Shown one piece after another: positions 1-4,448 of a stretch of DNA of 18,551 nucleotides. The notes under the pieces were generated by a model. It was not told where the DNA came from and made no database searches. It saw nothing but the letters and a program-made list of their open reading frames with translations. This DNA comes from Candidatus Eiseniibacteriota bacterium. GTDB lineage: Bacteria > Arandabacterota > Arandabacteria > Arandabacterales > Arandabacteraceae. The stretch covers positions 1-18,551 of the forward strand of contig JBDRNT010000022.1 in the NCBI GenBank assembly GCA_043810925.1, read 5' to 3'. Numbering within the stretch: the stretch's first letter is position 1; each line of letters begins with the position of its first letter. A program made the translations under genes and the position numbers.

Positions 1-86
1 TCAGAGATCCTCTGGACCACGGCGTTGCGTGCATTCTTTGATTGAAGTCTCTTGATTCCGTAGGTATCCTTGTCCTTGACTTTCAT
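1..86 (-). CDS. 5' fragment of a probable DUF1670-family protein (continues off the left edge)
   Basis: Minus strand reads GGAGG-gtcgta-ATG then MKVKDKDTYGIKRLQSKNARNAVVQRIS with no stop before the edge. The RLxxK..NAVVQRIS pattern resembles DUF1670 N-termini as I recall them. Only 28 codons are visible. Confidence 0.55.
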   Translation of the reverse strand, partial: MKVKDKDTYGIKRLQSKNARNAVVQRIS

Positions 87-89
87 TAC

Positions 90-176
90 GACCTCCATGA
101 GAGAGACAGGTAAGTCCCAAAACTATGCTTCTGTGACTAACTCCTCAGGAGTGTAGTCCTCCTCTCTCATGGGGTC
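90..176 (-). promoter_or_regulatory. Inverted repeat able to sequester the RBS of the edge gene
   Basis: ccatgagagag (95-105) and ctctctcatgg (162-172) are a perfect 11-bp inverted repeat, extended by gacc (90-93)/ggtc (173-176) with t94 bulged. The SD (GGAGG, 92-96) lies inside the stem. Confidence 0.75.
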
Positions 177-178
177 AA
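150..178 (-). promoter_or_regulatory. sigma70-type promoter for the edge gene
   Basis: Minus strand TTGACC (178-173), 17 bp, TACACT (155-150). Confidence 0.65.
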
Positions 179-207
179 ATGATACGAACTAACGGTAAGA
201 CGTAAGC

Positions 208-241
208 GGGCCGCTGGAGAGAGTTTCTTCAGCGGCCCTTT
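208..241. terminator. GC-rich terminator-like hairpin just past the phosphatase stop codon
   Basis: gggccgctggaga (208-220) pairs with tcttcagcggccc (226-238). A short T run follows only on the + strand. On the minus strand the stem is followed by gcttacgtcttac. Confidence 0.6.
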
Positions 242-245
242 AACA

Positions 246-1853
246 TCAGTTTCTTTTCAACACGATGAGAGTCATGTCATCTGAGTACGGGCGGTCCTGC
301 CTGAACTGATCGACCGCGGAGAAGATGGCACCCCTTATGCCCTGGGCATCCTCCGACGAGGTGGTCGCCAGTACTTCCTCCAGTCTCTCTTCGCCGAACA
401 TGTCTCCATCCCCGTTCATGCATTCTGTTATGCCGTCGCTGTAAAGGACGAGCACGTCACCGGGGCCGAGTTGGGTTTCGGAAGTCTGATAGGTAATCTC
501 CGGCAGAATGCCGAGTGGCATTCCGCTGACCTCCAGGCAGGAAATGTCACCCGAGGACCTGCGCAACATCGGAGGATTGTGCCCGGCATTTGAATACCGT
601 ATCCTGTGCGTCGCCGGGTCGAGGATGAGATAGAACAGCGTTATGAATCGTCCTTCGCCGACGCGGCTGATCAGGTCGGAATTCAGTTTGCCGACCAACT
701 CGGACGGATTGATGTCCTCAGCCGCCCGGAGCCTGAGCAGGGCCTGGAGACTCGACATCAGCATCGCTGCCCCGATGCCCTTACCGGAAACATCCGCTAT
801 TGCTATGCCTGTGGTGTTACCCGTGGGCACTACGTCGTAGTAGTCACCGCCGACTTCCGTGCACGGCCGGTTGAAAGCCGAGAGATCATATCCCGGGATG
901 TCGGGAATATCCGACGGGAACAGGCCGGTCTGGATCTCGATTGCGATCTCCAGTTCTGCATCGAGTCTTCGCTTGTCGCGGGCAATGTCGGCAAGGAGCA
1001 CGTTCTCGATTTTTTCGGCTATCATCCCCGAAAGCGTCGAGAAGAACAAGAGATCGATATCGGTGAACTGCCGGTCGGGCTCGGTCGTATCGACATACAA
1101 GACTCCAACAGTCTTCTCGCCGTTCCATAGTGGTGTGCAGATTGCCGACCTTATCCTCAGACTGGCAATGCTCTCGCTCATCTTGAGGCTGTCATCGCCG
1201 GCGACATCTTTTATAAGAATAGCCTGGTTTTCCGCGATGGCCTTTGTTGCTATGGATTTACTTATGGCAAATGTGGTTTGCGTTCTTGTTCTTGAAATGT
1301 ATGCCCGGGGGACAAGTTCACCCTCGTCGTCCCGGAGCAATATGGCCGCCCTTTCCGCACTGGTCCTCTTAACGCACAGGCTCAAGACGGAATCCAGCAG
1401 ACTCTCCAGTGGCTTGTCCTGGACTATCTGCCGCGCGATGTCGGCTACCGTCTCGAGAAGTACTATCGGCGCCATCATCTTCTTGGGCGGGGAGGGTGCT
1501 GATAGACTCATGGTTGAAGATGGGGAGGCATCGCCGGTCTTGTCCTTGAGGAACGAGAACTTCTCAGACGGCTCGTATATGATTCTCGAATTCCCTATAC
1601 CGATCGTATCCCCGGGGGAGAGCTCCTTGAGCCCGGATATCTTCTCGCCGTTTACGAGCGTTCCGTTCCTGCTTCCGGTGTCCTGGACGCTATAGGAGCC
1701 GTTGGTCCGCAAGATCTCTGCATGCCTGCGCGAGGCCACGGGTTCATCGATACATATCTCACTCTCGGGGAGCCGCCCGATCCTGAGCGATTTCTTCTCG
1801 GTGGATACGAGCTTCTGCTCGCCCGTGCCGAGTATCACCAGAAATGATGCCAA
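246..1853 (-). CDS. FHA-GAF-SpoIIE (PP2C/RsbU-like) Ser/Thr protein phosphatase
   Basis: FHA motifs (IGR, SRRHA, D.GSRNGT), a central GAF (SAICTPL..VGVLYVD) and PP2C motifs (GGDYY, ADVSGKG, NAGH, YSDG, DDMT). TTG start preceded by GAGGTG. Confidence 0.93.
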   Translation of the reverse strand: MASFLVILGTGEQKLVSTEKKSLRIGRLPESEICIDEPVASRRHAEILRTNGSYSVQDTGSRNGTLVNGEKISGLKELSPGDTIGIGNSRIIYEPSEKFSFLKDKTGDASPSSTMSLSAPSPPKKMMAPIVLLETVADIARQIVQDKPLESLLDSVLSLCVKRTSAERAAILLRDDEGELVPRAYISRTRTQTTFAISKSIATKAIAENQAILIKDVAGDDSLKMSESIASLRIRSAICTPLWNGEKTVGVLYVDTTEPDRQFTDIDLLFFSTLSGMIAEKIENVLLADIARDKRRLDAELEIAIEIQTGLFPSDIPDIPGYDLSAFNRPCTEVGGDYYDVVPTGNTTGIAIADVSGKGIGAAMLMSSLQALLRLRAAEDINPSELVGKLNSDLISRVGEGRFITLFYLILDPATHRIRYSNAGHNPPMLRRSSGDISCLEVSGMPLGILPEITYQTSETQLGPGDVLVLYSDGITECMNGDGDMFGEERLEEVLATTSSEDAQGIRGAIFSAVDQFRQDRPYSDDMTLIVLKRN

Positions 1854-1884
1854 CAGTCACACCTCTCGCTGAGTGTTCCTGAAC

Positions 1885-1913
1885 AGATTATTCGCTCAGG
1901 CCTCAGCCGTCAA
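1885..1913 (-). promoter_or_regulatory. sigma70-type promoter for the phosphatase gene
   Basis: Minus strand TTGACG (1913-1908), 17 bp, TAATCT (1890-1885). Confidence 0.5.
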
Positions 1914-1916
1914 GCT

Positions 1917-2050
1917 CTGGGGTCAGGCTTTGAATTCTGGAATCAGATGTCCTCTCAAGCAACGCAGGGAACCTTTGAGTTTGAGACCCGGGTCAGATAT
2001 TGAAACCTTCTCTGAAATGCCTGATTCCAGAATTCAAAGCCTGACCCCAG
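1917..2050. repeat. REPIN/MITE-like element with perfect 30-bp inverted arms (GGGGTCAG family)
   Basis: ctggggtcaggctttgaattctggaatcag (1917-1946) is the exact reverse complement of 2021-2050, with a 74-bp spacer. Extra partial copies at about 1987-2005 and 2054-2060. Confidence 0.85.
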
Positions 2051-2066
2051 GTGTGACCCCGGGATG

Positions 2067-4448
2067 CTAGCGGATCATGACGAACTTGGATGTGACGGCT
2101 TTGCTTCCATGCGAAAGCTTGATGAAATAGATGCCTGAAGGTGCGGCCGCGCCACTTGCCAGCCGGCCGTCCCAGGTCAGGGTGGTGCCCGAAAGGAAAG
2201 CCTCTGTAACCGGGAGGCTCCTGACCAGTCTTCCGGAAGCATCATAGATCTTAAGAGCTACGTCGGCATTGTCCCTACTGTCGGCGGGCAAGGAATACCG
2301 TATGACCGCGCTTCCGGTGACCGGGTTCGGTGTGACCCCGACCATCAGTTTTGACGCGGGGCTACGCCCGTCGGCAATACCTGAAAGATCACCGTCTACG
2401 TTGATTGATCCAAGATAGGGCAGGTAGCCGTTCTTGGTCGCGGTTACCTTGATCTCGCCGCTTATAGTCGGTGCGATAGTAAACTGCGCGTCGCCACTGC
2501 CGTCAGTCTCTTCGACATGATAGAGATCATCACCCATCCACAGACAGACGCGGGCACCCTCCAGCGGGGAGCCTTCCGCACTTACTGTGACGGGGAAACT
2601 GTGATTGCCGACGGCAATCTCCACCGGATGCGTCGCAGACGTCGCTATCGGCGTATCAAGCCAGACCGGTGTTTCGGGATCACCGAAGAGATTGCACGTG
2701 AACTGGGTCCACCTGTCGGCGTCGTTGCTTCCCGAATAGGGTATTCTCTGGATCTTGGCATCGGCGTGAATGACGCCGAGATGGCTGTAATTCCTTACGA
2801 ACATCGACTCAAAGAATTCGCGGTCGAACCTCTCGCCGGTCCCGTAACCGGGATTCCCCGGCCAGTACCAACCGTACCTCGAATTGCCTACGAAGAAACC
2901 GCCACCCTGAGGGGACTGGATAAAGCCCCGCCCAAAGCACCCAAAGGGGTTCTCGAAGTTCCCCGGTATGCACGCGACAGTGTAGAAGACGGAATAGCGA
3001 GGTCCATTGGTGAGCGCCAGCATGTCATCCGTGTCAATGGCACCGGATCCGATCGAGAGCAACTGGGCGTTACCATGGCCGTCATGGTTGATTATGCCGA
3101 TGCCGGAGTTGAGGGCGTTCATCGTGGCACTCCAGTTGAGGTTGCCGCTCGACTGGTAAAGCTTGGTTATGGGGTCAAACCGTGAGGGCACGGATTCATT
3201 GTCTATCATGTTCTTCGAAACGGCACCGTCGGTACTCGCATCAGCGTACTCGGCAAGAAAGAGCATCTCGAGCTGGTAATCGGTAGGTAGGGCGTAAAGG
3301 CCTTCGTAAGTGAGGATCTTGCGCACAACCGTCGTGCACTCCACTCCCAGGTTCACAGGCAACCGGCCCGCATACACATCAGGGTAAAGATCGACATCAT
3401 CCCCGGTCTCTCCCCAGTATGAATCACCGTCCTGATTCCAGTCGCCGTCCAGATCTGCGTAGTAAAGATCGCAGGGAATCCCGGTGTCCACCGTGCCGCC
3501 GACACTGCAGTAGCAGCCTCTGATCTTGGCTTTGGGGGCCGATGTAGTAAGTACGACCCACACGGTGCTCTCGTTAAGGTAGAAGTCCTTTACGCAATTT
3601 CTGATCTGCTCCTGTTCATCTCTTCCGGAGTAAGTTGCCAGGACGTCGGTCATGGTTATGATCGCCGCCGGGACTCCCTTTCTCGTCTTCCAGTCCTTGA
3701 GGACCGCATACTCGTCCGCGTGGTTGTCGATACAGATTATCAGGTACTCGGTAGCGACAGATGGGTCAAGCAGACCGGCGTTTTCAGGAAAGTCGTTATC
3801 GAGGTCGCCTGGATTCTCAACCAAGTTCCGGACTATCCTGTTTCTGAGATTCCTGACGTTTCGTGTCTCCATCGGAACGGCCGGTTCGACATCTGCGTCC
3901 TCGAATTCGACCGCCACTGTTATCTCTTCGTTAAACATGATCTTGCGCTCTGCCGGCACGTACTGGATCGGGTAGATCTGAACAGCGGTCATCTTCCTGC
4001 CCGCGATGCTTCCGGAAGATACCGTGTGGACGGGTGATGCCGGGTAGGGTTCAGCCAGGGAGTAGATACTCTCATCCGGGAGAACGGGTTCGGCCACGAA
4101 GCCTTCCAATAGCGGAATCTCCTGCTGGGCCGGCAAAATGAGGTACTCTCCGGGCAGCTCACGACCGCTCACCGACTCCACGGTGATCCGGCTGATCCGG
4201 CTCCCTCGCGGCACGTACACGTTCATTGCCTTTACGGGCAGGCACGGGTGACCGGGCAGCTTCATCAGGTCAAGATCACCCATCTTGAGGAGGTCATATG
4301 TGTCCTCCGCAAGCAGGTGCCGCTCGGCCTGGACTGCGTGCCGGGAGAATTCGAACGAGAAGGTCATGACGCTCTGCCCTGCATAGAGGGTAGACGAGGC
4401 TATGAGGCACAAAAAAAGAAAGAACCCACAGGTTCTACGGAGATTCAT
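2067..4448 (-). CDS. Secreted C25 (gingipain-like) cysteine peptidase with propeptide, Ig-like domain and FlgD-Ig/T9SS-like C-terminal domain
   Basis: Signal peptide; propeptide (PGHPCLP, PIQYVP); WKTRKG, CDLYYADLDGDW, GRLP; catalytic His (HDGHG) and Cys (VAC); NLFGDP; C-terminal PNP...IYDASGRLV...WDG...SGIYFIKL. Confidence 0.92.
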   Translation of the reverse strand: MNLRRTCGFFLFLCLIASSTLYAGQSVMTFSFEFSRHAVQAERHLLAEDTYDLLKMGDLDLMKLPGHPCLPVKAMNVYVPRGSRISRITVESVSGRELPGEYLILPAQQEIPLLEGFVAEPVLPDESIYSLAEPYPASPVHTVSSGSIAGRKMTAVQIYPIQYVPAERKIMFNEEITVAVEFEDADVEPAVPMETRNVRNLRNRIVRNLVENPGDLDNDFPENAGLLDPSVATEYLIICIDNHADEYAVLKDWKTRKGVPAAIITMTDVLATYSGRDEQEQIRNCVKDFYLNESTVWVVLTTSAPKAKIRGCYCSVGGTVDTGIPCDLYYADLDGDWNQDGDSYWGETGDDVDLYPDVYAGRLPVNLGVECTTVVRKILTYEGLYALPTDYQLEMLFLAEYADASTDGAVSKNMIDNESVPSRFDPITKLYQSSGNLNWSATMNALNSGIGIINHDGHGNAQLLSIGSGAIDTDDMLALTNGPRYSVFYTVACIPGNFENPFGCFGRGFIQSPQGGGFFVGNSRYGWYWPGNPGYGTGERFDREFFESMFVRNYSHLGVIHADAKIQRIPYSGSNDADRWTQFTCNLFGDPETPVWLDTPIATSATHPVEIAVGNHSFPVTVSAEGSPLEGARVCLWMGDDLYHVEETDGSGDAQFTIAPTISGEIKVTATKNGYLPYLGSINVDGDLSGIADGRSPASKLMVGVTPNPVTGSAVIRYSLPADSRDNADVALKIYDASGRLVRSLPVTEAFLSGTTLTWDGRLASGAAAPSGIYFIKLSHGSKAVTSKFVMIR

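Follow-up and report, generated by a model that had tools for sequence, protein, structure and literature searches.

The left edge of the window (the whole 18,551-nt stretch of DNA analysed, which is contig C22 of the source genome G000, an assembly of 185 contigs, and which begins where this contig ends, at position 1) raises the question of whether the reading frame cut at this edge belongs to a mobile element and, if so, whether its translation is shielded from transcription entering from outside. The first-pass annotation had regarded this frame as the mobility gene of an element ending at about 180–207, with a promoter and an inverted repeat arranged as in IS10 and IS50. The data described below make it almost certain that positions 1–195 are the left end (LE) of a multi-copy IS-like element of ~1.75 kb, and an IS10/IS50-like RNA lock against outside transcription is the best-supported reading of its leader and, judged from the sequence, a probable one.

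The edge ORF (ORF1) runs off the start of the window, since the contig itself ends there, and none of the remaining G000 contigs overlaps window 1–57, so that the sequence could not be extended leftwards. The smallest contig of this genome is 2026 nt long; therefore, the collapsed repeat body of ~1.5 kb was probably dropped from the assembly. According to the ORF list, translation of ORF1 could begin on the minus strand at the ATG at 98 or at 86, and the latter was taken as the start because GGAGG stands 5 nt before it and nothing similar to a Shine-Dalgarno sequence (SD) is located before ATG 98. The start at ATG 98 that had been assumed earlier was thus not borne out, and ATG 86 is the likelier start. 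The features of this region are collected in Table 1.

Table 1 Features of the left end of the element and of its outer flank, in window coordinates
Feature	Position	Strand	Remarks
ORF1 (DUF1670 paralogue 1), first 28 codons	1..86	-	ATG 86-84; frame cut by contig end
Downstream helix arm	83..105	-	Spans SD and start codon; imperfect inverted copy of terminal-repeat core
SD GGAGG	92..96	-	5 nt before ATG; invariant in 14/14 type-A leaders
-10-like hexamer TACACT	150..155	-	Predicted transcription start site (TSS) near 143, inferred from hexamers
Upstream helix arm	162..182	-	Within terminal repeat and promoter spacer
Terminal inverted-repeat core GTATCATTTGACCCCATGAG	166..185	-	Common to LE and right ends
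-35-like hexamer TTGACC	173..178	-	LE T vs right-end A (ATGACC)
LE-specific outermost 15 nt CCGTTAGTTCGTATC	181..195	-	Last element base 195; also in L039
TA target-site duplication	196..197		Empty site in same-genus G001
GC-rich hairpin, flank outside element	199..247	-	Inverted repeat and fold; behind phosphatase gene
SpoIIE/FHA/GAF phosphatase gene	246-1853	co-directional with ORF1	Pfam

The genome G000 carries at least three LE copies (99.5–100% identity) and five right ends (REs) with a sharp boundary. Window 1–198 recurs at 99.5% identity on contig C169, where it is also located at the contig end, window 58–194 recurs at 100% identity on C43, and the three LE flanks within this genome are unrelated outward of 196–198. 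The 20-nt core (166–185) was found, with 95% identity, near the ends of five further contigs, where it marks the REs, the distance to the contig end being ~116 nt in C165, C77, C38, and C25 and 187 nt in C63; these contig ends were assigned as REs because complete relatives show the same RE layout. The LE of the complete element L039 is identical to the window LE at 174 of 195 bases, and its RE matches the C165-type sequence. Complete elements carry the core GTATCAWWTGACC(C)CATGAG at both termini, as terminal inverted repeats (TIRs).

An empty site was found in the same-genus genome G001, in which only 7 nt and TA separate the orthologue of the phosphatase gene (88% identity to the window gene at 246–1853) from the stop of a convergent type IX secretion system (T9SS) gene, without the element; over 1266 nt, this convergent gene shares 82% identity with the C165 gene adjoining the RE. 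The G001 site reads ..CATCT TA TCTATT..., and in G000 TA flanks both the C22 LE and the C165 RE. It follows from this arrangement that C22 and C165 flank one insertion, that the target-site duplication is TA, and that the last base of the element is 195, inside the interval proposed by the first-pass annotation on the basis of the window alone. The empty site is imperfectly clean, since the spacer comprises 48 nt in G000, with the GC-rich hairpin at 199–247 included, vs 7 nt in G001. This hairpin, present in G000 and missing from the orthologous G001 spacer, was not called as a canonical terminator by the terminator scan, and the Rfam search of window 1–400 returned on it a single sub-threshold miRNA match (E 0.094, 21.5 bits; threshold 93). 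Multiple copies with a sharp boundary and empty sites, for which a BLASTN search had been suggested, were thus confirmed by the C169 and C43 copies, the five REs, and G001, and the edge ORF is therefore not a single-copy syntenic housekeeping gene.

The site of insertion is defined to the base. Among 37 distinct RE junctions, the boundary reads TAG in 33 and TAA in three, and the remaining one (L073) is a false RE call. The REs abut the stop codon exactly, and TAA becomes TAG (G000 contigs; loci L037–L088); accordingly, the unoccupied G001 gene ends with AGA TAA and the occupied G000 gene with CGA TAG, the final G being provided by the element. The tails of RE-adjacent ORFs matched TIGR04183 (T9SS type A sorting domain) above the cut-off in 22 of 23 cases, with L046 as the exception, in a test that covered only adjacent ORFs with at least 40 aa available (n = 23). 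On the RE contigs of G000 (C165, C77, C38, C25, and C63), four of the five tails match TIGR04183, and the fifth is a 65-aa remnant. The window itself contains, at 2067–4448, a Peptidase_C25 gene (gingipain-family) with a propeptide and a T9SS sorting domain, and its stop, CGC TAG, is without an element.

The content of the element could be read from complete copies. Scanning species-representative genomes with the 19-nt core gave 28 loci, a number to be set against ~35 expected by chance (arithmetic estimate); by inspection, 22 of these loci are element ends or derivatives, and six are unrelated contexts. Complete copies are present in a Gemmatimonadota chromosome (L017), a Zixibacteria metagenome-assembled genome (MAG) (L033), and a Poribacteria chromosome (L023 and L031), and their layout is LE, ORF1 (~270 aa), overlapping ORF2 (~267 aa), and RE, with a size of ~1.7–1.9 kb. 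Full-length ORF1 and ORF2 both match PF07900 (DUF1670), with E values of 1.5e-57, 2.9e-62, 1.2e-58, and 6.7e-61, and the match spans the whole 220-position model in both genes of the full-length relatives. The full-length ORF1 homologues have E values of 1e-57 to 1e-58 for this family, and the full-length homologues aligning to the window residues score 195–210 bits against a PF07900 gathering threshold of 25 bits. The 28 residues encoded in the window are 64% identical to the N-terminus of one such full-length DUF1670 protein (P0003, ORF1) and give no Pfam match by themselves because they precede the PF07900 model on its N-terminal side. The DUF1670 assignment of the edge ORF, made in the first-pass annotation from these residues, therefore relies on the full-length homologues.

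The element thus consists of two paralogous DUF1670 helix-turn-helix (HTH) genes only, without a recognisable transposase. Searches of ORF1 and ORF2 against Pfam and NCBIfam found no transposase family, only DUF1670 and HTH matches, and no DDE_3 domain (Pfam); the HTH matches are weaker, and those of ORF2 to HTH_23, HTH_28, and HTH_29 are sub-threshold or borderline. The sequence search of the PDB returned nothing better than E 0.32. The AlphaFold model of ORF1 (pLDDT 75.9, pTM 0.43) predicts a winged HTH at residues ~100–165 and a second helical DNA-binding module at ~168–255. With this model, Foldseek gave no match at E ≤ 1e-3, and VIA-align 2 against representative solved chains gave Z ≤ 6.5, with HTH matches exclusively, none of them nuclease-like, and with residues 1–100 barely covered. 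The ESM Atlas gave only HTH_23-type clusters with scores of 0.77–0.81 (lead level 0.9). We infer from the gene content of the element, in which no catalytic domain was recognised, that the edge ORF is a mobility gene, since only one other gene accompanies it there. The mean column identity in the alignment of 40 ORF1 sequences is 71%, with an invariant TRGxKxDMGPGxSHK loop and with L061 left out as an ORF1-ORF2 fusion; in this metagenome copy (L061:158-1840), the two ORFs are fused in a single frame of 561 aa. Pfam lists no function for DUF1670 (PF07900), and in the literature search no paper was found that names DUF1670 or PF07900, nor one on an insertion sequence targeting the stop codons of type IX secretion genes. 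The carrier element is thus without a description in the literature found; the principle of a fold-back lock is itself already known.

In the window, a perfect inverted repeat of 11 nt (95–105 / 162–172, 100% complementary, 56 nt between the arms) forms the centre of an extended helix, 162–182 / 83–105, which in a symmetric local alignment has 20 Watson-Crick pairs and one G.U pair, one bulged A, and one 1 × 2 internal loop. The first-pass annotation had described this repeat at 162–176 / 90–105 with the SD in its downstream arm; it is indeed there, and it is longer, so that the AUG is covered as well. Folding with ViennaRNA of the RNA 200..70 (131 nt) yields exactly this helix, at −47.2 kcal/mol with a z score of −3.74, and none of 200 shuffled sequences was as stable. 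The same helix is predicted, with a z score of −4.47, for a 241-nt read-through RNA starting inside the upstream gene. The RNA from 143 (74 nt) folds at −14.3 kcal/mol with a z score of +0.43 and leaves GGAGG unpaired. Both of the earlier expectations, that a transcript entering from outside buries the ribosome binding site (RBS) and that a transcript from about 143 leaves it free, are therefore reproduced as predicted folds.

The proposed mechanism is as follows. An inward promoter would be located in the LE, with its −35 hexamer belonging to the terminal repeat, and transcripts of the element's own, starting near 143, would lack the upstream arm and leave the RBS free. Transcripts from outside, for which the likely source at this locus is the co-directional phosphatase gene at 246–1853, would carry both arms, and such read-through RNA may fold into a helix of ~20 bp over the SD and AUG; with both buried, the genes of the element would remain untranslated from foreign transcription. 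The transcription start, the effect on translation, and transposition by the DUF1670 proteins are accordingly presented here as predictions.

The promoter-like sequence TTGACC-17-TACACT is present at 178–150 of the minus strand exactly as it had been placed and agrees with the consensus at 9 of 12 positions. The promoter scan of window 1–2500 found one site, against 1.4 ± 1.0 in shuffled sequences, so that this match, taken by itself, does not exceed chance. In relatives, a −10-like hexamer follows xTGACC after 16–18 nt in 11 of the 14 distinct type-A leaders (the subfamily that includes the window), and in all eight leaders of the TTGACC type the sequence TAnnnT is found at exactly 17 nt. The remaining six type-A leaders, all with ATGACC, carry TTGTAT followed, after 16–17 nt, by TATACT or TAAACT, as judged by eye. 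In 30 of the 40 type-B leaders, TAnnTT[TA]N, which we take to be the Bacteroidota −7 motif, is located 8–13 nt after GACC. In every one of these promoter layouts, the upstream arm precedes the implied start. Moreover, the LE reads TCATTTGACC, vs TCATATGACC or TCAAATGACC in the RE, in all six complete type-A TTGACC elements, and the same difference, TTGACC in the LE vs ATGACC in the RE, holds for the three LE and five RE copies of G000.

RNA libraries were also consulted. Two runs shared small parts of the stretch; one yielded no matching contig, and the other, an RNA-seq library of an aquatic metagenome, yielded one contig of 196 nt, which matched window 36–196 with ~94% identity. The runs are available as contigs only, from which the start, strand, and level cannot be read. 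This contig spans both arms and the boundary and could originate from either DNA or a read-through transcript; it runs into a different flank and therefore belongs to a related copy elsewhere.

Conservation of the helix was analysed in a metagenome scan, in which 67 loci with ORF1 relatives provided 64 leaders with the terminal anchor, 62 of them distinct and 59 analysable; four of the 67 loci (L045, L089, L101, and L102) were dropped as having no recognisable terminal anchor, and the leaders L063, L070, and L081 as having no in-frame ATG at the expected place. Over the 59 leaders, the mean unpaired probability from SD to AUG is 0.22 in the read-through form vs 0.43 with a shuffled upstream arm. 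The unpaired fraction is below the shuffled-arm control in 58 of 59 leaders and below the short form in 58 of 58. Type A (14 distinct leaders) has the arms CCATGAG.. and ..CTCATGG-A-GGTC, and type B (40 distinct leaders of low GC content) has the arms GACCATAGGAG.. and ..CTCCTATGGTC; between the two, compensating substitutions are present at two adjacent pairs (CCATGA/TCATGG vs CCATAG/CTATGG), together with a matched 2-bp insertion in both arms. In MAFFT alignments, pairing amounts to 83.7% for the type-A helix vs 29–48% in slid registers (14 leaders) and to 76.8% vs 27–45% for the type-B helix (40 leaders). Within type A, double changes occur in 5 of 22 pairs, and the covariation score was reached by 10 of 500 shuffles; within type B, covariation was not above the shuffles (percent paired reached by 164/500 and score by 40/500). 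Little of the helix is free to vary, since the same bases also serve as terminal repeat, SD, and start codon. Stem conservation in DUF1670 homologues, which had been suggested as a check, is therefore found in the sense that the helix is kept, in 58 of 59 leaders and in a divergent subfamily, but covariation within a subfamily is weak.

The divergent DUF1670 subfamily is represented by G000 contig C40 (L034/L035) and a relative on contig C14 of G008 (L121/L123). Its terminal repeat, GGCCATGTGTCC = GGCCAT(G/A)TGTCC, is unrelated to that of the window element, its flanks are TAA, and the orientation of insertion is opposite, with the LE placed directly after a co-directional T9SS gene. Since this gene reads straight into the LE, read-through is certain in this subfamily. 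The leader pairs TIR+TCC with GGAGG(A/G)C..AUGGC, enclosing an inner hairpin of very high stability, and has a predicted fold of −58.9 kcal/mol (z −6.62), and the helices of C40 and G008 have a single difference, U-A to U.G. This helix can be regarded, from its sequence, as an independent line that would favour pairing of the RNA in cis over a shared protein site.

A shared protein site is what the main rival explanation assumes. According to it, the inner arm at 83–105 is a third, inverted DNA copy of the TIR core, bound by the DUF1670 proteins for autoregulation or transpososome assembly, and pairing in the RNA is a by-product. The inner arm does resemble the TIR core over ~20 nt, a protein-binding role would likewise yield an inverted repeat, ORF1 and ORF2 are both predicted multi-HTH DNA binders, and the type-B TIR core is a perfect palindrome, GGTCATATGACC, as is typical of the sites of dimeric HTH proteins. 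However, relative to the terminal repeat, the inner arm contains two indels, the bulged A, by which GGGG becomes the SD GGAGG, and the 1 × 2 loop, and both are kept in 14 of 14 type-A leaders; a helix tolerates such changes, and a phased protein site usually does not. Moreover, outside the part that LE and RE have in common, the inner arm agrees with the bases specific to the LE: in a symmetric test on 35 distinct complete elements, 31 have an inner arm more similar to the LE than to the RE, one is a tie, and three show the reverse, and when only the 16 nt outside the shared core are compared, the numbers become 31, 3, and 1. At the same time, among transition mismatches, G.U outnumbers A.C by 30 to 13 in 51 distinct arm pairs and by 24 to 10 after clustering at 85% identity (37 clusters; binomial p 0.024), with a per-cluster sign test of 14 vs 6 (p 0.12); A.C mismatches are present, e.g., in L033 and L037. 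The tracking of the LE, the indels, and the excess of G.U over A.C therefore favour cis RNA pairing, and we consider a protein-bound DNA copy unlikely as the explanation of the inner arm. Still less probable is a constitutive brake, in which every transcript begins either before the upstream arm or beyond the element and translation is low or dependent on an activator. It would agree with the fact that the element's own TSS is predicted from hexamers only, with the T9SS gene reading directly into the LE of the C40/G008 subfamily, and with ISPpu9, for which a 5′-UTR structure is described that makes the RBS inaccessible and that an sRNA opens (PMC8450116). Against such a brake, promoter-like hexamers bracket the upstream arm in 8 of 8 TTGACC leaders and, differently placed, in other subfamilies, and the better −35 hexamer, TTGACC, is in the LE vs ATGACC in the RE in 6 of 6 complete elements. 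The promoter scan, being at chance level by itself, would also allow a chance inverted repeat beside an ordinary single-copy gene, but this explanation, with a practically negligible probability, was ruled out by the multi-copy status, the empty site, the 59 leaders, and the second subfamily.

A further alternative bears on the mobility-gene claim and not on the lock, and its probability is to be taken separately from those of the readings weighed above: the element may be non-autonomous, the DUF1670 proteins being regulators or targeting factors and the transposase being encoded elsewhere, e.g., an IS630-type DDE enzyme. The TA target duplication is as in IS630/Tc1-mariner, the HTH_23, HTH_28, and HTH_29 matches of ORF2, sub-threshold or borderline as they are, point in the same direction, structure searches found no catalytic fold in ORF1, and G000 has six DDE_3 genes. 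However, the terminal motif of the element was found at none of the six DDE_3 loci, and the two-gene unit is kept with intact frames at 55–77% protein identity in many metagenomes and at least three phyla, a conservation across phyla that suggests selection for a function of the element's own. A non-autonomous element thus appears somewhat unlikely to us. The six IS630-type DDE_3 genes (G000 contigs C65, C35, C108, C34, C145, and C185) are mutually unrelated in DNA, and one of them has an internal TGA. The opposite proposal can be made tentatively and is, in our opinion, possible, namely, that the DUF1670 pair is a new transposition machinery without a DDE, HUH, serine, or tyrosine fold, whose target would be the DNA for the last residues of the T9SS sorting domain, with insertion at the stop-codon TA. 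In this view, the conserved promoter within the repeat and the RBS lock would mark the unit as an insertion sequence that evolved, autonomous and self-restraining, in many phyla.

Returning to the RNA lock as the preferred reading of the leader, its closest parallels are IS10 and IS50, in which fold-back inhibition of transposase translation protects against outside transcription. The likeness consists in a promoter within the terminus of the element, a complement of the RBS located before the element's own start, and an inhibitory helix that is possible only in read-through RNA. At the same time, the element family and the proteins are unrelated, the upstream arm of the DUF1670 element is the terminal-repeat core including the −35 hexamer, and the helix extends over the AUG as well; neither antisense RNA nor methylation control is evident for the DUF1670 element, whose lock is predicted here from the sequence. 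IS630/Tc1-mariner elements duplicate a TA target, and the DUF1670 element shares with them this duplication, short terminal inverted repeats, and the HTH_23/28/29-like motifs of ORF2. Unlike them, it has two paralogous genes instead of one transposase, no DDE_3 or other catalytic domain was found in its ORFs, and it inserts strictly at the stop codons of T9SS sorting-domain genes. Via the TnsD pathway, Tn7 inserts at attTn7, where a conserved coding sequence has its 3′ end, and spares the gene. The DUF1670 element likewise targets the 3′ end of coding sequences with the gene kept (TAA to TAG), but its target is a domain common to many genes and not one locus, and the element is tiny and has no TnsABC-like proteins. 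For ISPpu9, an mRNA leader structure is described that hides the transposase RBS (PMC8450116), as is predicted for the leader considered here; in ISPpu9, it is the element's own mRNA on which this structure acts, and an antisense sRNA opens the structure (PMC8450116), whereas the geometry of the DUF1670 leader predicts discrimination by the start site.

If the lock is real, an element unrelated to IS10/IS50 reached the same way to ignore host transcription, i.e., by convergent design, and this would argue that the DUF1670 unit is an autonomous mobile element selected to limit its own activity. The unusual traits of this element are the absence of a recognisable transposase, its presence in distant phyla at 55–77% identity, and its base-exact aim at the stop codons of T9SS cargo genes. 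The defined LE, promoter, and leader provide a concrete construct for testing the movement of DNA by DUF1670 proteins. Additionally, the element explains contig breaks beside T9SS genes in metagenome-assembled genomes.

Several shorter sequences related to the element or located beside it were also observed. In a MAG of candidate division TA06, the loci L012, L026, and L029 are miniature derivatives of ~130 nt, in which the LE leader, the opening codons of ORF1, and the RE are retained. In Cloacimonadales, a conserved module of ~100 nt (L007, L011, L013, L015, L024, L028, L030, and L032) has the RE core directly after T9SS-type stop codons and a terminator-like hairpin at its far end; the stretch of sequence inspected there showed no DUF1670 ORFs. 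In the window, a MITE-like palindromic repeat of ~134 nt with arms of ~30 nt (1917–2050) occupies the interval from the start of the phosphatase gene to the stop of the T9SS gene for the C25 peptidase; it has 88 blastn matches across many G000 contigs, and its arm motif also flanks the LE copy on C169.
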